Source of the DNA: a virus | Strand: one strand, 5' to 3' | IMG/VR virus record: IMGVR_UViG_2548876986_000002 | Location: 2,204 to 66,203 of that record | DNA: 64,000 nt | Program-made: the position numbers and the translations under genes | The notes under the pieces: model-generated | What the model was told of the DNA's origin: nothing | Databases searched by the model: none | The model's input: only the letters and a program-made list of their open reading frames with translations | Part shown: positions 32,977-55,551 of the stretch, in pieces | Layout of the letters: each line of letters begins with the position of its first letter | How positions within the stretch are numbered: the stretch's first letter is position 1

Positions 32977-33682
32977 ACACGTTATAGAGCCACAAAAATT
33001 ATTATTAGCTTGGCAGTCTTTAGAACCAGAATATCGTGATCGACATATTGTAGCTGAACTCATTCGTACTAGTAGTGAAGATGCAAACCTCATTTATTTA
33101 GTTAACACAACTAGTTTTGAAAAAGCGAAGAATAGAGGTTTTAAAGGTTATCCAGCATTTTCATATTTGAAGAACATTTATTATGATAATGTCCTTGATA
33201 CTTTTAGAGTTCGTTTAATTAGTAAGAATAGAGATGATTATAAGAATTATTTAGATGAATTACGTTTAAAGCCTGATGTTCCAATAAGTGATTTCGGCTT
33301 GTTAGGATATTCAAATGGTAGATTATTGTCCGATGGATTTTCATTTATACATCCTTTTGAAAACGTCAGTGGACCGTGTGAATTATTTATAGAGGCCGCT
33401 GGGTTTAGACACATTTATGAAGGAACAAATCCTGTTAATATCCAAATAGGTGATAAGGTTTATTTTAAAATTACAAAATATGAAAACGAAGATGCAATTG
33501 AAATTTTAGACCAATCTAATAAACTTTTAGGGTACATAAATAGAGGTTTGATAAATACATTTATTGATTGGATTAATAACAAAAGAATAGTAACTGCCTC
33601 AATTGAAAAAATTAATTTATCTTTTGAAAATAGACGTTCTCTTTATATTTTTGTAAAAATAAAGAGTAAGACTATTTCTTAA
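32963..33682 (+). CDS. HIRAN-domain protein (partner of the kinase)
   Basis: C-terminal EAAGFRH..ENEDAIEIL..LLGYINR; overlaps the kinase stop. Confidence 0.75.
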   Translation: MNLIEHVIEPQKLLLAWQSLEPEYRDRHIVAELIRTSSEDANLIYLVNTTSFEKAKNRGFKGYPAFSYLKNIYYDNVLDTFRVRLISKNRDDYKNYLDELRLKPDVPISDFGLLGYSNGRLLSDGFSFIHPFENVSGPCELFIEAAGFRHIYEGTNPVNIQIGDKVYFKITKYENEDAIEILDQSNKLLGYINRGLINTFIDWINNKRIVTASIEKINLSFENRRSLYIFVKIKSKTIS

Positions 33683-35299: not shown

Positions 35300-35480
35300 A
35301 ATGAGCACTAAAAAGCAGATAAGGAAGAGAGATCAACAATAATTGTAAGAGTACCTAAAGAAATGGCAGAACAATTGAAATGGCTTTCTTTTAAGATGAA
35401 GGTAAGTATAGCAGAGCTTTGCCGTCGAGGTGCAGAAAAAATAATAAAGGAAAACTATAAAAAATTTCCTCCTCCTTGAC
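35300..35480 (+). pseudogene. Ribbon-helix-helix regulator, frameshift near the start
   Basis: STIIVRVPKEMAEQLKWLSFKMKVSIAELCRRG. Confidence 0.55.
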
Positions 35481-36107: not shown

Positions 36108-36587
36108 ATGGCTAATCCCATACCATATATAGAACTTGGCAAACCTGGAGATTCTAGTCATGTTAAATGGGTTATGCCGGACCCTAAAAAAGAACCCGTC
36201 TTTGATGATTTTGGTGGCCTTATTCAACAAGCCGTATCTGATCAAGGTGTCTCTTGTTACGACGAACTCAATGAATCCATGCGTTGGGCATTAGGTATTG
36301 CTGCACTTCGTGAAAATAAAACCTTAGCAATTGATGCAGACTATAACGGATTCAATCAAGTATTAGCCAATGTCTTTGAGAAGAGAGGATCGCTCGATAG
36401 TTTACAAAATCTTTATCAATACCTTGTTCGGATTGTGATTGAAGGAAGTAGACAATATGACGCACAAGTTGCCTATTGCATCGATAACGCCTTAGAAAAA
36501 GAAGAAGACAAGCAGGCGTTTAATGCGAAGTATTTTTCTCATGAGGAAGAAGCCGACTATTGGCACGACGAGGTGGACCATGGTTAA
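36108..36587 (+). CDS. Phage hypothetical protein
   Basis: GGAGG RBS; coupled to the next gene. Confidence 0.7.
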   Translation: MANPIPYIELGKPGDSSHVKWVMPDPKKEPVFDDFGGLIQQAVSDQGVSCYDELNESMRWALGIAALRENKTLAIDADYNGFNQVLANVFEKRGSLDSLQNLYQYLVRIVIEGSRQYDAQVAYCIDNALEKEEDKQAFNAKYFSHEEEADYWHDEVDHG

Positions 36588-37428
36588 TATATTACCGTCT
36601 CCACTCGTTTCTATTGATCAAACTACAATTAAACCTGGAATTTACGACATTTCCAATGAAATTTACCACCAAGGATCGGGTATCAGCCGCAGTGCATTAA
36701 TGGAGTTTAAAAAATCTCCTTATCACTATTGGTACAAGTATCTAAATCCTTATTATGTTCCAGAATCTGCTACACCGGCTCAAATCTTTGGTAATGCTTT
36801 GCATACCTTTATTTTAGAGCCAAAGGAATTTGAAAAACAGTTTTTTACGCTAGACAAATTCGATAAGCGAACTAAAGCCGGTGCGGAACGCTGGAAACAA
36901 ATCCAAGCAGAACAAGGTATTAAAACCTTTCTAAAGGAAGCGCAATACCAAGAGTTGCAACAAATGGCAGATAGTTTGCAAAAGAATAAGCTGGCTTTGC
37001 AATTGATTGAGAGCGCACAAATAGAGCAATCTCTTTACTGGAATGATCCTGAAACTGGCATTTTATGTAAATGTCGGCCTGATATTTTGCAGCGCAACTT
37101 TGTTTGTGATCTCAAAAGCGCACAAGATGGTAGTGCATGGGCCTTTTCAAAGGCCGTGTTGGACTATGGCTACCATATTCAAGCGGCGATGATTCGAGAG
37201 GCCTTGCTTCATATTCAAAAAATCAAAATAGATGATTTTTTCTTTATTGTTGTTGAGAAAGCAGAACCTTTCGTTACCGTTGTTTATCAATTGGATAAGA
37301 AATCCATTGATAAAGGTCGTGATGAATTTAAAAGTCTATTACAAGCCTACAAACAATGTTTAGAAACAGATAACTGGCCCAGCTATCGAGCCCAAGAAAT
37401 TTCACTACCCCGCTATGCATTTAATTAA
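36580..37428 (+). CDS. RecE/exonuclease VIII-like PD-(D/E)XK nuclease (DUF3799-like)
   Basis: YH..GISRS, CKCRPD, DLKS, YHIQAA; ATG at 36580 with RBS. Confidence 0.88.
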   Translation: MVNILPSPLVSIDQTTIKPGIYDISNEIYHQGSGISRSALMEFKKSPYHYWYKYLNPYYVPESATPAQIFGNALHTFILEPKEFEKQFFTLDKFDKRTKAGAERWKQIQAEQGIKTFLKEAQYQELQQMADSLQKNKLALQLIESAQIEQSLYWNDPETGILCKCRPDILQRNFVCDLKSAQDGSAWAFSKAVLDYGYHIQAAMIREALLHIQKIKIDDFFFIVVEKAEPFVTVVYQLDKKSIDKGRDEFKSLLQAYKQCLETDNWPSYRAQEISLPRYAFN

Positions 37429-37439
37429 ATTGGAGAATA

Positions 37440-38237
37440 ATGATGTCAAATGAATTAATTTGTGATCAAGGTAAATTAGTCCGTGCTGAATTAGATATGC
37501 AAATTACCACCGCTAAAGCTTATCCACGAAACCCCAATGAATTTATTAATTTAGCAACACAACTTGCTACACAAGACGAAGAAACCGCACAAGCTTGCTT
37601 TTATTGTCTACCTCCCCGTAAAGATAGTTATGGAAAACTTACAGAAATAAAAGGTCCTTCGATTCGTTTAGCTGAAATTGCTGCGGCAAGTTGGGGAAAT
37701 CTCCATGCTGGCAGTCGAATTGTTGAGAACGATGGCCAATCGATTACTGCAGAAGGTGTCGCTTGGGATTTGGAAAGAAACGTTAAGATCAGCAGCCAAG
37801 TTAAACGTAGTATTACAAAGAGCAATGGTGCTCGCTATAGCCACGATATGCAAACACTCACAGGCAATGCGGCTAGTGCTATCGCGCTTAGAAATGCGAT
37901 ATTTAAAGTGATCCCCAAAGCATTGATCGACAGAGTGTATGAAAAAGCAATGCAATTTGCAGTAGGCGATCAAAAGGATTTAAGCGCACGTAGAAAAGCA
38001 ATTTTTGATCGATTTGCACAATGGAATATTGACCCTAAACAAATTCTACAATTTTTCAAAAAGAATACAATCGATGAATTAACTCAAACCGATTTAGTAA
38101 AACTCATCGGTATAGGAACCGCGATCAAGGAAGAACATATTACACCCGACAAAGCCTTTGTCTTAGAGGAGGAAGAATCAACAACCTCTCCCAATATTGA
38201 GGAGCGTGTTAAAAATTTACTTAATCCAAATAAATAA
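37440..38237 (+). CDS. Probable single-strand annealing/recombination protein
   Basis: Directly follows the RecE-like gene; QITTAKAYPR..GPSIRLAE..WGN phage family motif. Function is inferred. Confidence 0.6.
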   Translation: MMSNELICDQGKLVRAELDMQITTAKAYPRNPNEFINLATQLATQDEETAQACFYCLPPRKDSYGKLTEIKGPSIRLAEIAAASWGNLHAGSRIVENDGQSITAEGVAWDLERNVKISSQVKRSITKSNGARYSHDMQTLTGNAASAIALRNAIFKVIPKALIDRVYEKAMQFAVGDQKDLSARRKAIFDRFAQWNIDPKQILQFFKKNTIDELTQTDLVKLIGIGTAIKEEHITPDKAFVLEEEESTTSPNIEERVKNLLNPNK

Positions 38238-38585: not shown

Positions 38586-39029
38586 ATGGCTATTAATAGA
38601 GTAGCCTTAGAGGGCGCGTGGTGCAAATTAATTGCACAAGAAAATCAATATTTTCGTGCAACAGCGGAATATCTTTTACTTGAAAATGGAGTCGATCGTC
38701 CAAGTGAAAGTCAAATTCAAGAGAAAATAAGCCATTTATTTCATATTTATCTTAGTTTTTCTCTTAGATTTGGAAAACGTTTATCAAATCGTGAAATTGA
38801 AAGTCTTTTTCAAGCTTCTTGTGGAGAAGAATTAAAAGAATCTGCAGTTTCCTTAAAAAGAACACCGGATGTTATCAAAAGACATCGAATGTCAGCTTTT
38901 AAAAAGCTTCAGTCTTCTAATATTGGCCAAGCTATTTATCGTGCCACACAACTCGGTTATCTCCCTTTAAAAGCTAAGCACCCACAATCGCTTATAGACG
39001 TTGAGGAAACTGAAAATGCCTCTGCTTAA
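38586..39029 (+). CDS. LuxR/GerE-type HTH regulator
   Basis: LSNREIE..G..LKE.A..L..T...IKRHR..AFKKL..AIYRA..LG. Confidence 0.8.
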   Translation: MAINRVALEGAWCKLIAQENQYFRATAEYLLLENGVDRPSESQIQEKISHLFHIYLSFSLRFGKRLSNREIESLFQASCGEELKESAVSLKRTPDVIKRHRMSAFKKLQSSNIGQAIYRATQLGYLPLKAKHPQSLIDVEETENASA

Positions 39030-39077
39030 CTTCATTTGCTTTCATTTTCATAACAATAAAAAAAGAGGGGTTTAACG

Positions 39078-39783
39078 ATGCCAACTAAAGAAACTAAAAA
39101 TAATCTTTTAGAGAAGCAACTGTCGCATATTTTGAAAGGGTTACATGAGGCTAAACGAAAGGGAGCTTTATCATTTACTTCTTCATTCGAATGTATAGAA
39201 ATGCTGAATGATGGGATTAAAGCACTGGAAAATACTCAATTTGCTTCGGTAGATGATTTTGATTCAGTGAAAGAATTACTTGAGCTGGAACAATTTTTCT
39301 CAGTGAGATTACGATTAAGAGACTTTTCTTTTCCAGAGTATCAATCTTGCATTTCTCCAACACTGCTATTTTACGCTGGAATTGAAGTTCAGTTAGATAC
39401 GTTAGAGATGAAAGCCTATGATTTAGATTATCGAGGTCATCATTGCGCAGCAATTGAAGCAAAAGGCCTGGTTTTTAATCTACATAATTTAAATCGTTGG
39501 TATTTCAGCGAAGGAAAAATTGATTACGTTGATTATAAAACCAGAGCATTACAAGCCATTAATGAAAGCCGGCCTATTTTAGAACAACATCGTGGTTATA
39601 AACAAATTCTTGGTAATTTAGTTTTATTTATTTTTATTTATTTTAACAGCAGGAACAGCTTTTCTTATTCATAAGGCTTGTACTGGACATTTTCTATTTT
39701 TCAAGCAAACCGAGAGTGCAAAACAGCTTGATGCACTAACTCAAACGTTTAACACACTTTCCCTATCTCAAAAATCATACTAA
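39078..39783 (+). pseudogene. Effector-like protein with a C-terminal hydrophobic hairpin, frameshifted at about 39640
   Basis: HRGYKQILGNL.. continues out of frame as AGTAFLIHKACTGHFLFFKQTESAKQL. Confidence 0.6.
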
Positions 39784-39851
39784 AGGAGTTTTTGTGAATT
39801 ATTAATAAAAAACAACCAACAAGTAATTATAACAATAACAAGAGGAAAAAA

Positions 39852-40755
39852 ATGCTACCCACTATAAAATTATGTGGCCATTTGCATCGCTCGAATGGTC
39901 AAAGCGCCTCTGCGGTGACAATCATTAGTATCGACCAAAGTCACCAACAAGGTATTGAGTTTGAGGCTTTTTGTCTAAAAATCAATGAAGAATATGCCGA
40001 GAAAAACATAACACAGTTCACCATTATTGAAACAGGTTATTTAAAACGCCATTATCAACGTTTAGATCCCGCTTTCTCATCGATTGAAGCAGCTGATTTG
40101 TCCGCTATTCAATTAGGGGAAGACTGGATCAAACAGCAACAAGCTTCTATCGATAAGCTTAAATTAACGCCTAAAATCATCTCTTGGAAAGAAATACTTG
40201 AAACACAACAAGACATAGAAGATAAACCATTTTCTGAATATTTATCCAAAATTGAAGAGGATTATAAAAACAGATAAAGTTTTTAGAAATCATGTTAATA
40301 CGATTTCACAAAAATATGCTGAAAAATTAGCTATTAAATACAATCCTACTGAAGAAAAACACTTAAATGAAGCCTGTTTAAAAGCAGCACGAGAGTATTT
40401 GTTAGAAGAATCCAGCATTATTTTTAAATTAGTGCATCACGGATTTACAAGCTTACTCTATCCAGGAAATGGCAATGCGGCATTACGCTATGTTCATCGT
40501 AAATACTTTGGTGAAACGAATCCCATGCCTTGGTTACGGTATGACATTCAATATCCTAAACAAGAAAAAAGAGTAGCTTTGAAAGAATCAGAAAGTAGTT
40601 TTTTTCAAGCTTCTTCTGCGAGTAATACAACAAAAACAAAGAGACATATTAAAAAATTATTGACTGAACTACCCGAGCTTGAACGATTAAGTCTTCTACA
40701 AGAATTAAACCAAGAAATAACAAAAACAAAGGAGTTAGGCTATGAAAAGGCTTAA
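39852..40755 (+). pseudogene. tRNA-dependent cyclodipeptide synthase (XYP-type), +1 frameshift in the A5 run at 40266-40270
   Basis: IISIDQ (nucleophile Ser, Q at +3), ETGYLKRH, LGEDWI, IISWKE, YLLEES (Tyr/Glu), LYPG; removing one A gives a 300-aa ORF. Confidence 0.75.
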
Positions 40756-41797
40756 AAAGGAACGTTTACTTGAATTATCGTTTCCTATTATCAATCGAAG
40801 TCTTCATTCTGATTTACCCGTCAATATTTTTGTAGCAGATTATGAAGGCTATCTAGCCTGGGTAAATACGCGCATGTTGAAAGCCATTAAGGAAACTGAA
40901 AAGAGTTTTTTTGGCAAACATCTTAGAACATGGGGAGAAGAAAAATGGGAAGCCTGCCAGCGTGTGATTGAAAGCAATTGTGAAGAGGGTATGGAGGAAA
41001 AAGGGCCTGATAACCGCTACTATTTTACTAACCGTATACCTGTTTGGCGTAGAGATAGGAGTAGCATCGCCGGCATTATTGGTGTTTCGCTTGATATAAC
41101 CGAACAAAAACAAGCTGAAATCGCCAAGCGAGAATTTATCCTAAATATGGAGCATGATCTACGAACGCCATTTACTGGTGTTTATAGCTGTGCTGAACTA
41201 GCGCATAGCATTGCAAAGGAAGAAAAGGTAAAAGAATATCTTGGTTATATTATTACTAGCGCAAAACAATGGATAGAGGTTGTAAACAATATTTTTTCAA
41301 TATTTGATTCTAAAACTATTGAGGATAAATCAAACTATTTTCATATCCAAGACTTAATAGATGAAATTCAATTACTCTATAGAGCGGCTGTACAAGCTAA
41401 AAACATAACGTTACATATTGTCTGTGACAATTATTTGGTTTGGGTACAACGCTTATGTTTAAAGCAAATACTGATTTCGCTTGTGAGTAATGCTATAAAA
41501 TTTACTGACCAAGGTAGTGTAATTATTTCCGCTTATGTTATAGAAGGATTGTTAACTATACAGGTAAAAGATACGGGTATAGGAATTGCCAAAGATAAAC
41601 AAGATTATGTATTTGAAAAATACACTAAAATAAAACCTTCAAATCAAAGTGGTGACTTTGTAGGTAGTGGTTTGGGCTTATATATTACTAAACAATGTGT
41701 TGAAAAACTTAATGGTAAAATAGAATTGATAAGTGAACCCGGGAAAGGTTCTAGCTTTCAGGTAGAAATTCCTTTAAAAAATAAACCACAGCTGTAA
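40742..41797 (+). CDS. Soluble PAS-domain histidine kinase (PAS-HisKA-HATPase)
   Basis: NIFVAD..WVN..GVSLDITE; NMEHDLRTP; SNAIKFT, VKDTGIGI, GSGLGL; no TM segment, no REC domain. Confidence 0.93.
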   Translation: MKRLKKERLLELSFPIINRSLHSDLPVNIFVADYEGYLAWVNTRMLKAIKETEKSFFGKHLRTWGEEKWEACQRVIESNCEEGMEEKGPDNRYYFTNRIPVWRRDRSSIAGIIGVSLDITEQKQAEIAKREFILNMEHDLRTPFTGVYSCAELAHSIAKEEKVKEYLGYIITSAKQWIEVVNNIFSIFDSKTIEDKSNYFHIQDLIDEIQLLYRAAVQAKNITLHIVCDNYLVWVQRLCLKQILISLVSNAIKFTDQGSVIISAYVIEGLLTIQVKDTGIGIAKDKQDYVFEKYTKIKPSNQSGDFVGSGLGLYITKQCVEKLNGKIELISEPGKGSSFQVEIPLKNKPQL

Positions 41798-42805: not shown

Positions 42806-43486
42806 ATGTCACTTACATGGCCTGGAACAGAAGAAGAATTAGAAAATAAGTTAAAGATGAATTTTAAACGAGGGAATATACAAAAAAATAAAGGAAACAT
42901 ATCCTTGTGCTACACTACCGAAGATGGTATAAAAATAAACTATTTTGGTCCAAAAACAAAAACAGTATCTATCCAACCGAATAATAGTAAAGTTCAAGCC
43001 ATATTGGAGGCACTGCTAACAAGCGAAACTTATATAGATGAAATTGGTAATAAAATTTTCATAGTACATGGACATGATATGAAAGTGAAAGAATCGCTTG
43101 AGAATATTCTTTACAAATGGGGTTTAAAACCATATACAATCATAGACGACAGTGGAAATGGACAAACTATTATAGAAAAACTGGAAGAAGAGACAAAATC
43201 TTGTGCTTTCGGCATTGTTATTTTGACACCTGATGACGCTGGATACGCTATAAAAGATGGTGAGGGGGCAATTCACAAAAGAGCTAGACAAAACGTTATT
43301 CTTGAAATGGGTATGTTATTAGCTTTTATGGGAAGAGAAAAAGTTAGCATTTTAAGACACGAAGATGTAGAAATGCCATCTGATATTTCTGGTGTTATTT
43401 ACATTCCTTTTCGCAATTCTTTAGATGAAGCAAAAGAAAAACTAAGAAAAAATCTTAAAAATGCTAATGTAAAAATAGACGACTAA
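42806..43486 (+). CDS. TIR-like nucleotide-binding protein (PF10137/Cap12-type TIR)
   Basis: KIFIVHGHD, TIIEKLE, GIVILTPDD, RARQNVILEMG, MPSDISG. Confidence 0.9.
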   Translation: MSLTWPGTEEELENKLKMNFKRGNIQKNKGNISLCYTTEDGIKINYFGPKTKTVSIQPNNSKVQAILEALLTSETYIDEIGNKIFIVHGHDMKVKESLENILYKWGLKPYTIIDDSGNGQTIIEKLEEETKSCAFGIVILTPDDAGYAIKDGEGAIHKRARQNVILEMGMLLAFMGREKVSILRHEDVEMPSDISGVIYIPFRNSLDEAKEKLRKNLKNANVKIDD

Positions 43487-44910: not shown

Positions 44911-46057
44911 TTAAGTTTTAATAAATCCATTGACGACTAAAGAAGGCTGCATGACATTAAAGGGTTGACTACCCCCTGTAGAGCCCGTTTGAACCGTATC
45001 GGGATGTTCGCCAGACCAATCGTTAGGTCCATTTTGAAATTGATGCTGTACCACAAAAGCGCTCATGCTGTGTGTATGCGCAATGAGTTCATCAATCGTC
45101 ATTTTTATGGGTTTCTTCGCCACCGGCACTACCGACCGTGTTATTCAAAATAGGGGTAGCTGTTCCACCAGAACCGACCAATGCGCGTCGACAAAAGTTA
45201 GGAATATTAAAGGTGGTCTTACTATCGCCTGCACCAAATTGCGTGCCAATCGCTGCAAAAAGCGCCGCATAGTCTGTTCGGCTAATGGCACTTCCATTCA
45301 TGAGTAAAAATCCTTTACGTTCAGTGATGTGCACGCCGGTTAAGATAAAATCACCGGTTTGTATGGAAGCTTCAGAAAGCGTAGCTATTTTTTGTTCGAG
45401 CTGATTTAAATACGCATGTAGGGTGCTTCCTTGTTTTTCTAAAGTCTTGTAATAACCAATTAATGCGGTGCCATCACCACCATTGGGTGCTTGACTGGCC
45501 AATTCGGAACGTAAGGTACTGACATCAGTATTTTCAATTTGTGCCGCGATAATATTGCCACCTTGACTGACCCAAACTTGATTATCTTGTGCTGTTAAAA
45601 TAGGTAATTTATTGGCTAAATTAGAGGTTAAATAACTATTAATAATATATTGCAGATTATTTTTGTTTATCTGCGTATTGAACTCCTGCATGATCAACAA
45701 TATGCGTTCAAAGGCCGCATCGAGGGTATGACCATTAAAGGATTGGGCATTGCCAAATTCGGTTTCAATGCCGACTTGCATGCTGCGAACTAAAGTAACA
45801 ATACTACCGGCAATAGGAACTTTCCCTTTAACGAAAGTAATCGTGCCACCCGTCATGGTTCCTGCGTTCTGTACGGTGTAATCTTGATTCAATACTTGTA
45901 AGTCTTTATCAGGATTGGCTTCATCACCAGGATTTGTTACGTAGACAGCCATATCATTATCAACGAGAATCAAATAAGTATAGTTAAAAATAGCTGTCTT
46001 TCCGTCAGCGATATATTGGTCAATCGTATTTTGTTGGGGTAAATTGCTTTTTGGCAT
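44911..46057 (-). pseudogene. Tail fibre: T7 gp17-like anchor plus tail-collar domain, frameshifted
   Basis: DGKTAIFNYTY..DYTV..GGTITF; GFLLMNGSAISRTDYAALFAAIGT; GGSQPFNVMQPSLVVN. Confidence 0.85.
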
Positions 46058-46058
46058 A

Positions 46059-48854
46059 TTATTTTCCGTAAATCATTTTTTGTCCGGGTGCTAAATAAGA
46101 TTTATCGCCGAGGAGCTGATTGAGGTAAGGGCCGATAACGGGCATGGTGTCGATGGGTAGGATATTTTTAGCAATATTTTTTATTTCTTTTCCCGATTTT
46201 TTTGGATTAGCTGTCACAATAGCCCCGCCTAATGAAATAGTATCAAGCAGTAGCTTGAAGCTAGGCGACGTAAATAATTTCATTAATTCACCAGAGCCCT
46301 TATAGGTAGGGTCAAGGATTTGCATGAAAACCCCAAAATTAGGATTCACTAAATCCGCTAAATAATTTATTTTTTCAGGGACATTCATTTTGGAAAACAA
46401 CGGCATGCTTTTGCCATGCGATAAATTATTGAATAGATTTGACATATAACTTAAGGGCAGTGTGGCAGCAAACATGGCTAATCCCCACCGTAAGCGCATT
46501 TGGGTATTCATTGCATCTTGAAAGCCTTGCCAGAGCACTTTATCGGCATAGGTGAAGGCAAAGCCTTTGAACTGCATGACCATGCGAAAGAGTTCGCCTT
46601 TAACCGTGCCAGGGCGTGTACCGAAGTACATAAAGGCTTTCATAAAGCTATCAGGGGCTAATACGGCGTTATCAGAAGCGACGGAAAATATTGTGTAGAC
46701 CTTACGGTACAAATCATTACGCATTTCATAGCGAGGTTTGGTATCGCCATATAACGTTTTTAACTCGTCGTCAGTTACCACATCCACATTAGCTGTTGTA
46801 AATAGGCCTTCTTGATTTTTCGTTCTCAATAAATCCCATTCTTTTTCACCTAAATCATATTTTTGTAACTGCCAGCGAGTTTCTGGCAATAATTGATTCC
46901 AGGATTTATTTCTTTGTTTATACAAGCCTTTCGAAATAAGGTGCATTAAAGAATGGCGATTGCCTTTATCGAAAGCCTCCAGCAAATTGGCCCGAAAAAA
47001 TCCAGTGGTTACTTTCTGAATGAGTTCCGTGCCATTGGTTAAATCCGCAAAGCGAGCGATATAACCCAAATGGCTATCGGCTAGAAGCTTAAATTGCTTG
47101 GCGATAAATTTTCGCTCATCGTCGGCAAATGAATCGAAAGTATGGCTTATCGTCGAAGCAAAACTTTGGAAATACTGATTTCCCCAGCGCTGCGCAAAGG
47201 AAGCGATATAGACAGAATCAGGTAAACTCTGTAATACGATAGTCGATAATCTTGCTGCTGCGCTTAAAGCCCGTGTATTAGAACCAAACGCCGCGATGCT
47301 GGGGCTTACCACCGCCTTGTTTTGCTGCATCACTTCCTTATATAACATGTCAGTATTATCGTTCCAAGCTTGACTCTTAGGTGATTTTTTTCGTTGAATT
47401 TTTTTTAGATCAAGATAAACGGATGCTGGGTTATCACCCATGAGTTCCGCCGTTCCAATACGATTCCCCGAACTGTTGAGATCACCATTGATGGCTTTAA
47501 ACAAATTCCCTTGACCATATTCTCGGCTATAATTCAAAAAAGACTCATGGTCCTTCCAGTAAAAGAATAGATGAGCTTTTCTTTTAACGGCTTCTCTGTC
47601 ATTGACAATTGTTGAACGCGTGAAGATTTCACTTTTACCTGTCGTGATATTGTCATAAATCGTCTGTAATCGTTTATCCACTTCCGATTCAATAAGATTA
47701 CCTTCCGTATCAATGGCTTTACTACCAGCAAAGGTTTTCTCTAAGTTGAGATGCGTTTTTATGAATGAAACCCATCGTTTTTCTGCATTTTTAATGGATT
47801 CAGAACGCATTTCGGCCGATAAATTATGGAGGCTTAACCGCTTTGCCATACTGCGCCCACCTTGCATCACTAATCGTTGATCATGGACGGCTCGAATAAA
47901 GCGATCGGTATTGACTTCACGTAGACGTAAGGCATTAGAAATAATTAATTCGGGATTACGGACATCAATATAATTTTCTATTTTTTTAGCCAGTTGTTTT
48001 GCCAATTCCGGTGCAGTCTTCCCATCTAAGGCACGGGCAACGGAAATATCATTATCTTTATTTTGTAAATAACTTAATTCCTCATCAGACATGCCTTGAT
48101 ATAATGCTTTAAATAAACGTTGCTGTGCGGCTTTCTGATAAGCCTCAACATTCGACGATAAATTTGTATAGCGTTGCACCAGTAAGGAGCGCAAATTAAT
48201 CGGTTTTTCTTTTAATGTTTTCGCTAAATTGTCAAACTTTCTCACATTATTAGCGGTAACTTGGATATCTTCAAGGTGATTTTGTAAATTTTCTTGGTTA
48301 ACTTCATCAATCGCTTTGTTAATAGCACCTCTATTTCCTAATTTGTCATACTCTCTGGCTTTGGATAACACATTATTGACATACTCATGCAAATCATTTT
48401 CGGTAAATTGCGATAAATTAGCGAGGGCATTCGCAAGACAGTTCTTTTTTCGTTCGGCTTCGTCTAGCTTAGCTTGTTTCTTAGCGGCTATCCGTGCTTT
48501 TCTGCGTGCTTCTTTGTCTTGGTATTTTTTAGTGACCCTGCCAACCGCTTCGCGCCTTTCTTGGGTTAAACGTTTCTGTTGTTCAACACGTTTGGCTATT
48601 TCTTTTCCTTCTGTTTCTTGTTTCTCTTTTTTTAAGCGTTTTGTCTGCTCAAGCCGTTTGACAATTTCCTTCCCCACCGCCTTTTCTTGTCGGGCGGAAG
48701 CATTGATTTTTTGGCTAGCTAAACTTGCTTTTGTTTTTTCTAATGCTTTCCCTTTTTGAGCGGCCTCGGTTGAGAGTGACCTTAATTTTTTGTTGACGCC
48801 TTTTTGCTTTATTTTTGAAATAGCTTTATCTAAAACCGTGCCAGCCTCAGGCAA
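46059..48854 (-). CDS. Large internal virion (ejection) protein, T7 gp16-like position
   Basis: 931-aa helical protein preceding the fibre gene. Confidence 0.65.
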   Translation of the reverse strand: MPEAGTVLDKAISKIKQKGVNKKLRSLSTEAAQKGKALEKTKASLASQKINASARQEKAVGKEIVKRLEQTKRLKKEKQETEGKEIAKRVEQQKRLTQERREAVGRVTKKYQDKEARRKARIAAKKQAKLDEAERKKNCLANALANLSQFTENDLHEYVNNVLSKAREYDKLGNRGAINKAIDEVNQENLQNHLEDIQVTANNVRKFDNLAKTLKEKPINLRSLLVQRYTNLSSNVEAYQKAAQQRLFKALYQGMSDEELSYLQNKDNDISVARALDGKTAPELAKQLAKKIENYIDVRNPELIISNALRLREVNTDRFIRAVHDQRLVMQGGRSMAKRLSLHNLSAEMRSESIKNAEKRWVSFIKTHLNLEKTFAGSKAIDTEGNLIESEVDKRLQTIYDNITTGKSEIFTRSTIVNDREAVKRKAHLFFYWKDHESFLNYSREYGQGNLFKAINGDLNSSGNRIGTAELMGDNPASVYLDLKKIQRKKSPKSQAWNDNTDMLYKEVMQQNKAVVSPSIAAFGSNTRALSAAARLSTIVLQSLPDSVYIASFAQRWGNQYFQSFASTISHTFDSFADDERKFIAKQFKLLADSHLGYIARFADLTNGTELIQKVTTGFFRANLLEAFDKGNRHSLMHLISKGLYKQRNKSWNQLLPETRWQLQKYDLGEKEWDLLRTKNQEGLFTTANVDVVTDDELKTLYGDTKPRYEMRNDLYRKVYTIFSVASDNAVLAPDSFMKAFMYFGTRPGTVKGELFRMVMQFKGFAFTYADKVLWQGFQDAMNTQMRLRWGLAMFAATLPLSYMSNLFNNLSHGKSMPLFSKMNVPEKINYLADLVNPNFGVFMQILDPTYKGSGELMKLFTSPSFKLLLDTISLGGAIVTANPKKSGKEIKNIAKNILPIDTMPVIGPYLNQLLGDKSYLAPGQKMIYGK

Positions 48855-48859
48855 GGTTC

Positions 48860-50221
48860 TTTTTTGTCGAGATTCCTTTTTAGCTTTATTAATTACTTTT
48901 TTTTAGCAATTTATCGTCTGACATCAGATTTTCCCTAAAATACAATGTATCGCATTACGAAATACCTGGTTTTTTTCTTTAAATTCTTGAAATTTTTTGA
49001 CCGCAGGTGATACTTCTTTTTCGATTGCACTGTCCTCTAAATGTTTTGAAGGGAGTTCGATAGGCGTTGACTCCTCTTTAACGCCGGCTTTTAGATTATC
49101 CTCGTACTGTTTTAAGCGTTCTTTCGCTTCAAAAGCTTGTTTTTCAGACAGTTTTGCATCAGGAATATTATTTTATATGGTCAATGACATTGGATAAAAA
49201 ATGGCTTCCAATCTTCTGCTCCTTTATTTTCTAGTTCCGTGAGAATGCCTTTTAAGCCGTCACTTAATGCAGGATTTTGCTTGAGACGATCTAAGGCATT
49301 TTTTTGGATAAAATCAGATAGTACATTGGGGTTATCGATACCTTCACGAGCTAATAATTCTTCCGGTAATAACCCACTGTAAGGCTTTAATATCATTCGG
49401 TGTTAATAACGATACATTCACTTTCTTATCGATACGGTTAACCGCGATATCAGGATGATTTTTTGTAGTAGTTCAGCTGCACGTTGTTCGAGTTCTGGGT
49501 TATCTGGATTTTTTTATAATCCTGGAACCAAACTTTTCTTCAGGTGTAATGGTCTTGTTCTTTTTTTTTCTGTTAGATCGCTTACTCCGGAACGGTTAAA
49601 AAGTTTAGAGCGAATTATACTTCCGACAAAAGGAACAGCACCTAAGGCTAATCCAATCCCACCAGCAATAGCAGTCGTTTTAATAAAATGTGAAACATCT
49701 ACTTTATTATCAGGCGTTATAGATTCCGCTAGAGTTTGAGGAATCAATGGCGCCGTACCAATACCAGAAACAGTTAACGCTTTTTCACCCAGTGATCCTA
49801 CGGTTTCCGTCGATAATTTTGTGATTGTTTTACCCGCAAGATTGCTTAAGAACTCAGGTGCTAAGGCCGAAACACCTTTAACCGCTCCTTTAGCTAATAA
49901 ACCGCCGGCGCCCCCTAAGGCAATATTGATCGGGTTTAATCCAAAACCTAATACAGCAGCAATTCCATCGCCCACTTTTTGTGTTAATGGTAAGACAGGT
50001 ACTTCCGTTACATTTTGTATGGAATGATAAAGAGCATTCAGTGATGAAAAATGGGGATGTAATCCTGCTAACGATCCTATTTTATCTAAAGCCATCTCAG
50101 GTGCTATCAACTGTTCTAAGAAATTACCTGATAGTGCACTATAACTGGGTGGACTAAATTCAGCTTGCTGTTGGTATTGTTCTTTAAAATCTGGTTTTAC
50201 TATCGCATTACTGAGTAACAT
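48860..50221 (-). pseudogene. Internal virion protein, frameshifted
   Basis: ORFs 49514 and 49181 in the late operon; Gly/Ala-rich. Confidence 0.55.
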
Positions 50222-52644
50222 TTATTTCTTCCTATGCGCATAATGTAATAAGCTATCGGTATAGGGCTGCGAATAAACCACTGTTCCGGCTTGATCAACG
50301 GCTATGATTAAACCATCCGGTGTATTGGTGATAGTTAACGGATTGCGATCTAAATTAAAAAACTCAGCTAGAGGATTTTTGATGTGTTGCCAGACTTCTT
50401 TAGCGATAACAGTTCCTGTCGATGTCATGGGAAAAAGTCCCTGACTTTCTTCAACCACTGTTTTAAATGGTTTGATCGGACTGATGTTAAATCCTAGAGC
50501 TTCATACGCTTCCTCTTTCACATGCTGAGCTAAGTAAGCGGCTTCACTATCGGTAATGCCTAGCGCTTTGGTGTTAAAGGTATAACCGTCACCTTTTGAA
50601 ATTTGATAGGCTCTAGTGAAATTGTCGTTAAACGTTTGCATGTATTTATTAATGTCTTTGAGTGCTAAATCGTTATGGATTAAACCTTGATACTTCACAT
50701 AGTTCATCGCCATGTTGACCACGCTTAAAGTACGGGAAGGATCACCCGATTGACCTAAATAATCTAAAACATCTGAACTATCGTGTTTAGGATTATCTCG
50801 CAACGCATTCCAATGGCTGCTAAACCAGCCTGATTGACTGTATAACTGCGCAATGAGATTATTTTTTAATGATTTATCATCGACACCAGAATCGCTTTTA
50901 TTAATAACCCCAACTTTAGAAAAATCCTGTCCCGTTTGATTCGCTAAAATCAATTGTCGTAAAAAAGCGGGATCAGTATTGCCCTGTAATAATCCCGCGG
51001 TATAAGCGACTTCTTGTTGCAAGGGCTTTTGTAAACTGGCAGCCAGATAAACTTTATTGTTGGGATCGTGATGGGAAAGCACTTGCAGTAAGGTATCGGG
51101 GTCGGCGCCTTGGATAAAAGCGGATTGTGCTTGTAGTTTCAGGTCATTTGGAATCGGTTGAATAAAATGATTATCGATCTGCATCGCATGACCGAGTTGC
51201 ACGGATCGCGAAATGTAGTCGTTATAGGCTGCACGCGGATCCACACTATTATAATTTTGTGCATAACCCTTTAGAATAGCTTGTCCTTGCGGTGTTTGTT
51301 GAATGACTTGAGCATATTCTCCCGAGGTAAAACCATTCAGCAGATGCTGCAAGGCGGCTCGTTCGCCTTTTTCGGCTTGGGTTAGTAAACCATTTTTGGT
51401 ATCGAGTTCACTTAAGCGCTGTTTGAGTAACTGCCAATTCTCACCGTTATTGAAAAGACCTTGTGCTTTTTGTACACCTTGACCAAATAAAACCACCTCG
51501 TTTAAATGATCCGGCGTAAGCTTCATCCAGGCTAAAGGATTAATCGGCTGACCTTTCACTAAATCGGACTTAACACCCTGCATCGTTAAATCCATATCGT
51601 AATGATTTTGCAGATGTAAGATGTCTTGTGAAATCGGTGTATTGGCTTTATCGATGTTTTGGGCAAACGGTGAGGCTAAAACTTTCTGCAAGTCGGCCGA
51701 GCGCGCGTTGGGGTTTTGATAAAGCTGGTGTAGCGCCTGCACTCTATCGAGGCTATGGGACAGCGTTTTAAATAATACGCCGCCCTGTTTCGGCGTAATA
51801 AGTCGCCCCAACATCGCCTTTTCTACTGTCTGATGTGCTAAATCTAATTTTTGCTGAAAGAGTTTGTCATCATTAACAGAGCTATAGAGGTCTTTTAAGA
51901 CATTCGGCCATTCGGTATAAAACTGACTGGTTAATTTCAGTTGGTTGGTTTGAAAATCAGTGAGTTGCGCTTGGCTATTAACTTGATTACGACTGGATTG
52001 TAATAAAACGTCTAATTGCCCTTTGGTTTTATTATTAACAGGTGTGGTATTTTTAATATTATCCAGTTGCTGCTGCGTATCTTGTGCAATTTGATTGGTT
52101 TGAGTTTAACCAAGGCGTCAGATTTAATTTGATCCGCACTGCTGGTGGCTTGGAGTAATAGCGCATTACTTTTTTCTTGCTCTAAACGCAAATCGGTTTG
52201 TATCAACCCTTGAGACACATTGCCAAGGGCCTGTCCTATTGATTCAAAACCTTTAGCGCCACTGGCTATTTTGGTATCGCGCAAAATGGGCACTTCATCT
52301 TTAAATTGTGCAAAAGATTCAGCCATTACTTTGGACTCATACTTTTTAATTGCGCAAAGGACATCAGTGTGTTGGCCAATGTTTTCGGTATTACGCTGTG
52401 TTGCATTAAAGCTGGGTGAAGAGAAGGCAACACCCCGTGTGGTCATCTGTGCCGCTTGGCGTTGAATAACCTTATCTAAACTGTCTAAGTTACTTAACGT
52501 GGATTGCTGGTACTGCAATTCATTTTGTTTGGCTTGTAAGTCAAGTTGATTTTCTTGTGCTTTGGCTGCTTGTACTTCCATAACACCTTTGCCGACTTCC
52601 ATTGCCGCGGCTGTCGCTAAAATAAGTAAACTGGCTTGTGGCAT
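50222..52644 (-). pseudogene. Two internal virion proteins (gp14/gp15-like positions), fused and frameshifted
   Basis: Gln/Ala-rich N-terminus, apparent second start MAESF.., continuing into the 50222..51814 ORF. Confidence 0.55.
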
Positions 52645-52651
52645 AATTCTC

Positions 52652-54645
52652 CTAGATCATTGATGCCGTCACTTGATAGGCAATGGCGGTTATTTGTAAA
52701 TCGAACGGTGCATTTTGGGTAATCGTAAAGGTTTTATCGCGATTCCAGCCTGATACGGGGCCAACAATCGCTGTTCCACTAGGAGGAAATAAAAAGGTCG
52801 TTTTATCCGCAATTTTATTAAAAAATTGATAATTGACTAACTTATCATCAATGTAAAAGTTTAACGATTCAAAATATTCGACATAAATCTTAGTCGTTTG
52901 TTTCATTAAGTCAGCGTGCGAAGGGCCTGTATAAAAATACATGGGTATGATTTCAACCGGATAAAGCAAACCGACAATTGCTGTTCCACTAAATCTTTGC
53001 GGATTGGCAACATGAATAACACCATTTTTTACGCGATAGATACCCATGTCATCAACAACAAGTACAACTTGTACATCTAAGCCTTCAAAACGTTCTAGGC
53101 CTTCAATGGTGCCGTCGGAGGACATTTCTTTTTCTTCGTAGCCATCGATTTTGATGTGTTCAGCTAGCATTTTTTCTAAAACGACCTGATCACTGTTGAC
53201 ATACTTTTTTAACAAATAAATGAGGTTGTTGATAGAGACTATATTGAGTATTTCCATAAGGTGGGTTAAACGTCATGGGTGTTAAGGCGGCTAAATTGAC
53301 TTCGTGTGCAAATTGAAAGGTGGTAATGGTATGATCAGGATTTAAAAAATAAATAAAATTATCTTGTGAAGTATCAGTACCACGCAATAGCACGGCTTTA
53401 ACGGGATTTTTGACTAAGTGGCTCGCGGCCTGGCTAATATTACTGGCTAAATAACTCTGGCCTAGTCCTTGAAACCGAAAGTTAATGATCGCATTACCAG
53501 TTTTATTGAGATAATAACTGTCATTGAGATAGCTAATGGGTTTTAACTTTTCTGAGACACCGTAGGCCGCTTGTTGACGTACTGAGAATGTGCCAGGGGT
53601 TAAGCCCGTGTTTTGTTCTTGCGGGGCTACAAACTCGTAATTGGCCGTATAAATTTCTAATTGCTTACCGCCATTCATCCAAACAATACCGCCAGAGTCA
53701 CTTTGCCCTAAGGTATAAATAATCGCATCGGTATCTTGTCCTACACCGACATCAAAATTGACCGGTGCATTTATTTTTGAGCCAAAGATCGTATTATTAA
53801 GTGTTTTAGTATTCGCAAACCACAATCGATTTTGAAAAAAGATAACTTTACTGGGATAACCCATATTTTGAGAAAAAGCGGCTTTTCTTACAGAGTATTG
53901 CGTCGCTGATGTTGATGCGCCGTTAATTAAAAAAGGAATTTGTACTTTTCCTGTAAAAATGACCTTATCGGCTTGATAAGCAACTTTTGTAATGATCGCA
54001 TAACCTAATGGCGAAACCTCAGTCGTTCCACCACCAATAATTTGTCCGCCAATCCAATCATCCGTAAACCCAGGTGCATTGGTTAATGTCAGGGTAATGG
54101 TATGCGCGTCACCTGAAATAGAAGCATCGCCTTTGTTATAAATGACATCCCCAAAATCATAGGCTGGTAAAGGATAGAGATTTAATACTTCATAGATAAA
54201 CAACGATTTATCGTAATCTTTGATTGTAATTCGCGCCGGTGGATACTCTTTATGAACGAGAATCAGCGAATCGTTGTCATTGGTATAATCTAAGTCAGCC
54301 AAATCGACAGAAAGATACGGTGTTATTAAGGTTTGTAAGAAAGTAATGTGATCTTCATCATCACTTATTTGGTAAATATCAAAGGATTTATCTAAACTGA
54401 CGAGAATATAAAATTGACCATTTTTATCCTGAAAAACTATACAATTTCGCGTTAGGATCGCTATTTTTAGTTTGAGTGAGAAATTTCGTCCCTTTTCTTT
54501 TTTTAGCTAGACCTGTGGTTCCAACTTCAATATTTAACAATGACTGTGCAGCGGTGAGATAATCTTTAAAGTCTGTTCGATGGTAATTAATCGAATCCAC
54601 TTCGCCACTACTGAACATGGTTTGCCGGATAAGCTCGGTTGCCAT
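52652..54645 (-). pseudogene. Tail tubular protein B (T7 gp12-like), frameshifted
   Basis: QTMFSSGEV..; GYPSKVIFFQNRLWF; split over 3 ORFs. Confidence 0.8.
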
Positions 54646-54646
54646 T

Positions 54647-55222
54647 CTATATCCACATCACCCGATCAAAATCGTTAAATGGCGCTGCTTTAATATCGCG
54701 CTCCATGTTATTGAGTAATAACGCATTCATTTTTTCTTTTTCGTATTTAGCTTCCAGGTAATTCGCTAAGTTGACGTTCTGCGTCAATGAAACGGCTGAA
54801 TCAGAAGCCGCATATAATGCTAAAGTTCGAGCAAAGATCGGTGGTAAGATGCTGTAATCCATCGTATTGACGAGATAATAATAGATGAATGGGTTCGTGT
54901 TAGTGAGGATGTACCCGTCTACAAGCTCAAAATCTAAAATAAAACGGTTAGCGCCCAACTTAATAAAACGCCCATAATCAAACGGTAATTGATAGGTATA
55001 ACGATAATCCGGCGAGAAATTTTGTGTAATGGGTGTATTATCTTCACGATACTTCACTGCAAAGCGCCAGGTTTCGCTCAATAATAAGATGGGTAATAAG
55101 CTATCTAGTTTCTCTGAAATAAATTGTGCGGCCTCACTTTCTTTTTCATTGGCAATCGGTGACAAACCTAAGGCTAATAAGGCTTGATTGATCACCGTTA
55201 GTTTGGAAAAAGGTAAGGCCAT
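54647..55222 (-). CDS. Tail tubular protein A/adaptor (T7 gp11-like)
   Basis: VINQALLALG..WRFA..YQLP.D. Confidence 0.8.
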   Translation of the reverse strand: MALPFSKLTVINQALLALGLSPIANEKESEAAQFISEKLDSLLPILLLSETWRFAVKYREDNTPITQNFSPDYRYTYQLPFDYGRFIKLGANRFILDFELVDGYILTNTNPFIYYYLVNTMDYSILPPIFARTLALYAASDSAVSLTQNVNLANYLEAKYEKEKMNALLLNNMERDIKAAPFNDFDRVMWI

Positions 55223-55233
55223 ACACGCCAGTC

Positions 55234-55542
55234 TTATTTGGGAGGTGGTGGTGGAGTCGGTGCGGCCACTTTAATGAGTTGTGCTTGCGGCGGATCACCG
55301 CTTTTTGCGGTATTTTTAACAGAGAATAAGCCACTGTTTTTGCTAGACTCATAGTTGATGATCATTACGTCGAAATCTTTAACTTGTTTTCGGATATACA
55401 GATCATTAATATAACCGGCTTTGGTAATAACATCTTCTTTATCTGGCGTACTAGCTGAAAATAAAGCGGCCGCTGTACCAGGAAGACCTCCGGTTACGGG
55501 AGTTAGGGTAATAAAATTGGAGGTGTTAGGTATACTTGGCAT
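55234..55542 (-). CDS. Virion/head-associated protein
   Basis: Lies between capsid and tail tube A; relic copy at about 11480-11690. Confidence 0.6.
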   Translation of the reverse strand: MPSIPNTSNFITLTPVTGGLPGTAAALFSASTPDKEDVITKAGYINDLYIRKQVKDFDVMIINYESSKNSGLFSVKNTAKSGDPPQAQLIKVAAPTPPPPPK

Positions 55543-55551
55543 AGGATCCTC

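Follow-up and report, generated by a model that had tools for sequence, protein, structure and literature searches.

A conserved pairing of a cyclodipeptide synthase with a soluble PAS histidine kinase, carried on prophage-like elements of a Rickettsiella-type bacterium: a candidate make-and-sense signalling cassette

Why should a gene for a small-molecule synthase sit directly before a soluble sensor kinase within phage-like DNA, and does the kinase sense what the synthase makes? The question is raised by a stretch of 64,000 nucleotides (positions 2,204 to 66,203 of the IMG/VR virus record IMGVR_UViG_2548876986_000002; henceforth the window) that belongs to the genome of a Rickettsiella-type bacterium. 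Its region 38586–41797 contains a small LuxR-type regulator gene, a cyclodipeptide synthase (CDPS) gene broken by a frameshift and a PAS histidine kinase gene. An earlier note, made from the sequence alone, had seen in them a candidate diketopiperazine signalling system, possibly a phage communication or lysis-lysogeny circuit comparable to arbitrium. From comparison with its relatives, the window copy is a real and probably intact member of a conserved CDPS-PAS-kinase cassette borne by prophage-like elements. We give roughly even odds (about 50%) to the reading that the PAS domain of the coupled kinase senses the product of its own synthase, the whole being one conserved signalling cassette. 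Established here are the families of the parts, their conserved adjacency, the existence of natural fusions and the co-diversification of CDPS and PAS.

The open reading frames (ORFs) at 39852–40277 and 40252–40755 are the two parts of one collinear XYP-type CDPS, split at around residue 140. In phmmer searches of PDB sequences, residues 24–139 of the N-terminal half aligned with residues 28–140 of 5mlp, the CDPS of Rickettsiella grylli, and residues 6–118 of the C-terminal half with residues 140–251 of the same protein (E values in Table 1); 6y4b, 5mlq and 5ocd were matched too. A profile of the family, built from 14 intact relatives plus the two window halves, retrieved the solved enzymes with E values of 1e-103 (5mlp), 3e-44 (6y4b), 5e-24 (5ocd) and 2e-18 (5mlq). 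The catalytic set, which in AlbC numbering comprises Ser37, Tyr178, Glu182 and Tyr202 with Pro203, is present in the window CDPS as Ser26 (in IISIDQ), the Y and E of YLLEE and the YP pair, all nearly invariant across the family alignment, and residue 40 is Gln (the non-Asn state of the XYP subfamily). Because the window copy is split, evidence on the fold comes from an intact paralogue of the same genome that is 56% identical to it. The AlphaFold2 model of this paralogue (pLDDT 83.8) had exclusively CDPSs as its top 38 PDB matches (template modelling score 0.78 for 5mlp and 0.84 for 5ocd), followed by tyrosyl-tRNA synthetase. These collinear matches, the profile and the paralogue fold bear out the XYP enzyme, with its Ser, YLLEE and YP, that the earlier note had obtained by joining the frames. 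The search with Pfam PF16715 that the note had suggested as a check went the other way: neither half matched, the whole genome gave one weak sub-threshold match elsewhere, and just 2 of the 16 family members were matched weakly. TIGR04539 likewise scored 21.9 bits on an intact paralogue, against a cut-off of 45. Because homology to the solved CDPSs is strong, we take it that the curated models under-represent this branch. By family, fold and catalytic residues, then, the window gene encodes an XYP-type CDPS that is predicted to make a cyclodipeptide from aminoacyl-tRNAs, and product formation is known for its relatives, cyclo(Phe-Phe) (cFF) and cFL for the R. grylli enzyme (Rgry-CDPS) and cFF for that of Candidatus Glomeribacter gigasporarum (CglO-CDPS) (PMC12945691). 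The C-terminal tail of about 60 residues found in window-clade CDPSs is helical in the paralogue model. As a separate observation, the region 40570–40755 and its homologues in the family alignment show a conserved S-x-F-F motif after the CDPS fold in several clades, followed in the window clade by a predicted helical hairpin (residues 257–297 of the paralogue model). At first reading the motif had been listed as a candidate signal for translocation.

The stop of the CDPS overlaps the start of the kinase by 14 nt (40742–40755) and the kinase has no transmembrane segment (maximum KD19 1.32), both as originally described. In Pfam it matches PAS_4 (23.2 bits, cut-off 23.1), HisKA (6.3e-9) and HATPase_c (4.8e-24). 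The phospho-acceptor His138 (41153–41155) lies in MEHDLRTP, and NAIKF, DTGIGI, FEKYTK and GSGLGL form the further boxes; with the His of the dimerization and histidine phosphotransfer (DHp) domain and the boxes of the catalytic and ATP-binding (CA) domain in place, this is a class I (HisKA) sensor histidine kinase. Its PAS domain was modelled with a pLDDT of 93 as a canonical PAS fold, with 481 PDB matches at E≤0.001, and the top 50 Foldseek matches are all PAS-domain proteins (LOV, WalK, FixL, BvgS, NifL and CitA). A defence-system reading of the pair was dropped: PADLOC had no match for the CDPS and a marginal one for the kinase.

The pairing of the two genes is strongly conserved, as the earlier proposal needed it to be. 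Among 31 genomes of the order, relatives were found in 14 with the CDPS C half as query, and at each of the 20 loci fetched the gene directly 3', in the same orientation, encodes a homologue of the window kinase, in most cases with a start that overlaps the CDPS stop; the CDPS copies other than that of the window are intact. The genome studied here alone has six CDPS loci, each followed by such a kinase. Outside the order, in a sample of 400 genomes drawn evenly from the class, 24 carry a CDPS and the kinase lies directly downstream at 16 of 28 loci. Both activities even occur in one protein. Among the best 150 of 1120 matches in 1.84 billion representatives there are at least six single-polypeptide CDPS-PAS_4-HisKA-HATPase_c proteins, four of them with a C-terminal receiver; the catalytic Ser and Y..E are retained in all six and YP in five. 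The fusions include metagenome-assembled genomes (MAGs) labelled Burkholderiales and Rickettsiaceae, stand in ordinary chromosomal contexts beside single receivers, a REC-GGDEF protein and ankyrin genes, and carry no annotation beyond 'ATP-binding protein' or 'histidine kinase', since the CDPS models of Pfam and NCBIfam do not detect this branch. Pattern scans of genomes with closer relatives yielded only one contig, from an already-known genome. All hosts seen are small-genome intracellular bacteria.

Variations on the arrangement are found in the two organisms whose enzymes have been solved. In Ca. Glomeribacter the kinase is 46 nt away from the CDPS (6y4b) and divergently transcribed. In R. 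grylli the row of genes reads REC, a second divergent CDPS, PAS kinase, hexapeptide transferase, GerE, Rgry-CDPS, kinase, GNAT, AMP-ligase and PAS-kinase-REC. The last part of this row (L025:4378–8908, G002:C2), in which the Rgry-CDPS kinase is followed by a GNAT (Acetyltransf_18), an AMP-binding ligase and another PAS-kinase-REC, suggests that a second kind of small-molecule enzyme may pair with a PAS kinase of the same family.

What links the synthase to the sensor domain, and not just to the kinase as a whole, is the way in which they have diverged. Over 17 CDPS-kinase pairs, pairwise CDPS identity follows PAS identity closely (r=0.94, Mantel p=5e-4), a correlation that could reflect linkage (see below), while its correlation with identity of the DHp-CA kinase core is low (r=0.19). 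The same five clades appear in the CDPS and PAS trees, with which the core tree is in strongly supported conflict. Compared with its nearest relatives, the window copy is 52–58% identical in the CDPS and 48–57% in the PAS domain, against 32–33% in the core.

A second, independent indication comes from the two enzymes with the same known product, since R. grylli and Glomeribacter CDPSs both make cFF (PMC12945691). The two synthases are only about 30% identical and their partner kinase cores fall in different clades, but the partner PAS domains are 53–57% identical. Reading the product pocket was limited to positions that could be anchored to catalytic residues (positions from PMC5816076). Among these, Gly35 together with Cys206 is common to the two cFF enzymes only, and the residues vary between clades and are constant within them. 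The window clade has Ile or Val at position 35 (pocket P1) and Gly or Arg at position 206, so that its product is probably not cFF. Taken together, the co-diversification and the cFF comparison favour a PAS domain that senses the product.

The remaining parts of a two-component circuit are more scattered. The regulator of the window lies two genes upstream, where the earlier note had placed a LuxR-type gene, and its own match to GerE is below the cut-off (E=0.0033, 17.5 to 19.1 bits against 23.5). It is homologous, however, to the products of C5:9457–9894 (E=6e-18) and C4:6589–6951 (C1, C2, C4 and C5 are contigs of this genome, G000), and these paralogues pass, scoring 29.7 to 52.5 bits. Neither an autoinducer-binding domain nor a receiver domain was found in the window protein, the latter as already remarked in the note. 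GerE-type HTH (helix-turn-helix) genes are present directly 5' of the CDPS in at least 11 loci from five genomes. PF00072 (REC) was not found in the window copy either, and this locus does not hold a complete two-component set. The absence of a cognate receiver stated by the note is thus correct for this copy and does not extend to its paralogues: stand-alone REC genes occur at C4:5080–5406, C5:9976–10311 and C2:192594–192866, in each case between the GerE gene and the CDPS, a kinase-fused REC is found at C4 and C1:896k, and hybrid kinases are present in many other genomes.

Put together, these parts suggest the following circuit. The XYP-type CDPS would make a cyclodipeptide out of two aminoacyl-tRNAs, and this product would bind to the PAS domain of the histidine kinase, a cytoplasmic protein whose translation is coupled to that of the synthase and which would then autophosphorylate on His138. 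The phosphoryl group would pass to a receiver domain, either fused to the kinase or encoded by the small gene of the sister copies; the window copy, because it has none, would rely on a receiver encoded elsewhere. Output would be exerted via the small GerE/LuxR-type HTH proteins encoded just upstream, and in this genome the cassette travels as accessory cargo of prophage-like elements. Inferred in this scheme are the identity of the product with the PAS ligand, the path of the phosphoryl group and the genes that are controlled. The signal could report cell density, or else aminoacyl-tRNA and amino-acid supply within host cells. Because pairing and fusion recur in many intracellular bacteria, this is probably a make-and-sense circuit rather than a phage-specific one.

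Several points weigh against such a circuit. Diffusible quorum signals are not usually made by a synthase fused to its receptor, and such a fusion fits a cis-acting or metabolic sensor equally well. The parallel divergence of CDPS and PAS could also have arisen without any ligand specificity, if the two are physically linked and the conserved kinase cores have been subject to gene conversion among paralogues. Among the top 50 matches of the PAS model there is no receptor for a dipeptide or a pyrazine, only generic PAS folds, and the window copy itself has no receiver and a sub-threshold GerE match.

One alternative does without a free ligand. The CDPS would be an input module of the kinase that senses aminoacyl-tRNA supply by protein contact: binding or turnover of charged tRNA would alter the contact between CDPS and PAS, and the kinase would report amino-acid or translation status in the host cell. 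Such a sensor would account for fusions that put the CDPS directly before the PAS domain, for stop-start overlaps that suggest translational coupling and for the restriction of all hosts seen to small-genome intracellular bacteria. It sits badly with the retention of the catalytic Ser, Y and E everywhere, including the fusions, from which it follows that catalysis matters, and with a PAS similarity that tracks the product (cFF) across CDPSs only about 30% identical, and we consider it unlikely.

We are similarly doubtful about a purely pathway-specific regulation, in which the kinase would control a small biosynthetic locus in response to another cue and the cyclodipeptide would act outward, on the host, on competitors or on metals. 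Two-component regulators are common in biosynthetic clusters, the GNAT and AMP-ligase pair of R. grylli also precedes a PAS kinase, and manipulation of the host by such dipeptides was proposed by Aravind in 2010 (PMC2922099). This leaves unexplained, though, the single-polypeptide fusions, the co-diversification of CDPS and PAS with a decoupled core and the PAS match between the cFF synthases. Tailoring or export genes, moreover, were not found in the window cassette with Pfam and NCBIfam.

The assembly as given carries an extra A within the A5 run at 40266–40270, across which homologues read D-Y-x-(T/S)-D-x-x-F. The earlier note had pointed to this base; it is indeed present in the assembly and is probably an artefact. 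Contigs of runs X1, X3 and X8 (public samples under three organism labels, 98–99% identical to the window) read A4 at the site, that of X3 at a depth of 424. Over the 16 kb compared, the single-base differences, at 35309, 39846, 40266, 42108 and 42362, are all in homopolymers of at least five. Outside the window, at G000:C2:285893–294472 of the same assembly, rpoB is found in two frames and rpoC in three pieces, one of the rpoC breaks being a missing A in 'caaaac' within the invariant GKQGRFRQNLLGKR motif. These genes are essential and not breakable in this way, and therefore the assembly has homopolymer indel errors. We thus regard it as very likely that the window CDPS is really intact and the extra A an assembly error. 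The converse, a pseudogene in a decaying prophage with the kinase left as an orphan, could appeal to the frame change of the neighbouring ORF 39078–39783 and to another copy, C2:193004–193971, that is likewise split, in addition to the base itself; set against the A4 samples, the homopolymer pattern and the demonstrable errors in rpoB and rpoC, it is improbable. A consequence is that 'broken' gene calls on this genome, including those of prophage genes, are weakened and need read-level confirmation. The comparison with X1 and X3 also revealed about 21 substitutions within 250 bp (40598–40849), and none in the preceding 900 bp. This cluster covers the CDPS tail and the first 36 kinase codons and gives the junction between the two genes a mosaic or hypervariable appearance.

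The features of the cassette and its upstream neighbours are collected in Table 1.

Table 1. Coordinates of the synthase-kinase cassette and of the genes directly upstream in the window.
Feature	Positions	Strand	Evidence or remark
RecE-like PD-(D/E)XK exonuclease	36523..37428	+	DUF3799 2.6e-36; phrog_412 exonuclease VIII 1.3e-79
Phage protein, function unknown	37440..38237	+	phrog_3657 1.4e-52
Small GerE/LuxR-type HTH protein, 147 aa	38586..39029	+	HTH at about residues 65-118
Unrelated cargo ORF, 198 aa	39078..39674	+	hydrophobic tail in another frame to about 39783
CDPS, N-terminal half	39852..40277	+	catalytic Ser26 at 39927-39929; phmmer vs 5mlp E=2.6e-15
A5 run with +1 frameshift	40266..40270	+	A4 in three other public samples
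CDPS, C-terminal half	40252..40755	+	homology from about 40264; phmmer 5mlp E=2.1e-11, 6y4b E=4.5e-11
YLLEE motif of CDPS C half	40396..40410	+
YP motif of CDPS C half	40459..40464	+	followed by helical tail of about 60 aa
Soluble PAS histidine kinase, 351 aa	40742..41797	+	Pfam; H, N, G1, F and G2 boxes
PAS domain of kinase	40814..41110	+
HisKA domain of kinase	41123..41296	+
HATPase_c domain of kinase	41459..41779	+

Phage genes are found on both flanks of the cassette, the RecE-like gene (phrog_412) and phrog_3657 upstream and structural genes downstream, where tail, virion-structural and major head PHROGs occupy the minus strand at 45092–56469. With recombination genes upstream and tail, virion and head genes downstream, the cassette lies in the accessory region of a prophage-like element and, being flanked by phage genes, qualifies as prophage cargo (a moron). 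The same arrangement is contiguous on a contig of another strain. The RecE and annealing genes named by the earlier note were half right: the RecE-like gene was recovered, and the annealing label for 37440–38237 was not, this gene matching a PHROG of unknown function. The order RecE-like gene, LuxR, CDPS and kinase is present three times in this genome, paralogues of the 36523..37428 exonuclease preceding the two other copies, at protein identities of 31–64%, from which we take the copies to be old and diverged and their prophage-like carriers to be related. A scan for promoters and terminators was uninformative, promoter-like sites being fewer than in shuffled sequences. The neighbourhood of the module contains no CsrA gene.

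The ORF at 39078–39674 fills the slot that a stand-alone receiver gene holds in the paralogous copies. It has no Pfam match, and its identification as a divergent CDPS or receiver was ruled out (hhalign probability of 0.3% against CDPS). NCBIfam gave a weak match to the C-terminal region of LegK1, a Legionella Dot/Icm effector kinase, with a score (24 bits) that falls far short of the cut-off. In its extended version, 39078–39783, the ORF changes frame within a T-rich repeat (39614–39647), and homologues of it are encoded close to CDPS-kinase pairs in two further genomes (L030 and L025).

Does this setting make the cassette a phage device? A tblastn search against 50,697 GenBank phages gave no matches, and pattern scans of IMG/VR with close relatives returned no viral contig. 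A scan of IMG/VR with an alignment of the fusion type found one uncultivated viral genome (IMGVR_UViG_2660238140_000001, L072:4404–8684), in which the CDPS is divergent from a PAS histidine kinase of 919 aa; because this pair is near the contig end it may be host flank. Elsewhere in Rickettsiella, the surroundings of the pair contain few phage genes. Neither AimR-like TPR (tetratricopeptide repeat) nor secreted AimP propeptide domains were found in the cassette genes (38586–41797) with Pfam and NCBIfam. The arbitrium-like phage communication of the earlier note, in which a prophage cyclodipeptide 'dialect' would count kin or host density and set lysis against lysogeny, can point to the position of the module between recombination and structural genes, to the three diverged copies and to the IMG/VR contig, but we hold it to be quite improbable, the least probable of the alternatives considered, given the chromosomal, non-phage contexts of the fusions and of the Glomeribacter pair, the empty phage searches, the scarcity of phage genes near the pair in other genomes and the failure to find a link to a repressor or antirepressor. 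The cassette is better described as a general bacterial module carried by these elements; a role in lysis-lysogeny is possible, and because most copies elsewhere are chromosomal it lacks specific support.

The nearest described relative is Rgry-CDPS (PDB 5MLP), of the same subfamily, with collinear halves, the same fold and the same catalytic residues, which also has a GerE gene 5' and a kinase of the same family 3'. This partner kinase has only HisKA and HATPase_c in Pfam, yet its sequence can be aligned to the PAS regions of the other kinases. The window enzyme differs in being about 32% identical, in belonging to a different clade (E instead of B), in the helical tail of its clade and in the residues at pocket positions 35 and 206 given above. 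CglO-CDPS (PDB 6Y4B) is another XYP enzyme beside a kinase of the same family, with a partner PAS region 53–57% identical to PAS domains of the R. grylli clade; unlike in the window, its kinase is divergently transcribed, its host is a betaproteobacterial fungal endosymbiont and its context is not phage-like. Earlier surveys recorded the enzymes and left the kinases unmentioned, both Aravind and colleagues, who described CDPSs in Legionella, Rickettsiella and chlamydiae (PMC2922099), and Gondry 2018 (PMC5816076). Skinnider 2018 noted PAS domains near CDPS genes and alluded to the DPO-VqmA system.

Other signalling systems offer parallels. In staphylococcal agr (AgrB/D with the sensor AgrC) and in Bacillus comQXP, the signal gene and the sensor part co-diversify and the transmitter core does not, just as CDPS and PAS co-diversify as a cassette while the kinase core diverges separately. 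Those signals, in contrast, are ribosomal peptides sensed outside the cell by membrane domains, whereas here a tRNA-dependent enzyme is combined with a cytoplasmic PAS domain, and the parts are not homologous. In CqsA/CqsS of Vibrio and LqsA/LqsS/LqsR of Legionella, the gene for an autoinducer synthase neighbours that for its sensor kinase, and a receiver protein completes the set; Lqs is found in a lineage of intracellular bacteria related to the present one. These systems use alpha-hydroxyketones, a pyridoxal phosphate-dependent synthase and membrane sensors, none homologous to the CDPS or the PAS domain. VqmA of Vibrio cholerae and of phage VP882 resembles the cassette in its cytoplasmic PAS domain, which senses DPO (3,5-dimethylpyrazin-2-ol), a small dipeptide-derived ring, and in its LuxR-type HTH output, the phage copy controlling lysis. 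It is, however, one PAS-HTH protein without a kinase, DPO is not made by a CDPS, and no VqmA structure is among the top 50 Foldseek matches of the window PAS model. Arbitrium (AimP/AimR of SPbeta-like phages) is comparable in concept alone, as a self-made signal encoded by a phage; in the genes of the window cassette Pfam found neither a TPR receptor like AimR nor a gene for a secreted propeptide, and the module is mostly chromosomal elsewhere.

Diketopiperazines have long been proposed as bacterial signals. We know of no dedicated synthase-receptor pair for them, and none was met in the literature searched. New here are the co-diversification of CDPS and PAS, the PAS match between cFF synthases, the recurring GerE and receiver context and the diagnosis of the assembly error. 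Going one step further, the clades could represent several orthogonal cyclodipeptide 'dialects', each CDPS clade pocket being matched by its PAS domain on interchangeable kinase cores and allowing the cells, or the elements that they carry, to tell self from non-self in the host vacuole. This extension is speculative and we think it rather unlikely; if true, diketopiperazine signalling would have its first dedicated pair of synthase and receptor, diversified in the manner of pherotypes. The cassette lends itself to direct tests, with a small enzyme that has relatives of known product, a soluble PAS kinase, natural fusions and at least five co-diversified clades for swaps. It also occurs in hosts that are hard to study (Rickettsiella, Glomeribacter and the Rickettsiaceae and Burkholderiales MAGs), where its signal could reflect density, or the supply of amino acids, within the host cell.

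Two further loci of the window deserve mention. Downstream of the kinase, 42806–43486 is an intact TIR-like gene with a full-length match to the PADLOC candidate defence family PDC-S35 (1.9e-64) and only a weak one to Cap12-type TIR NADases. Upstream, two overlapping ORFs at 31960–33682 match positions 20–312 and 317–546 of the 547-position profile phrog_26212, and may correspond to a single gene in other phages or to one gene that has been split here.

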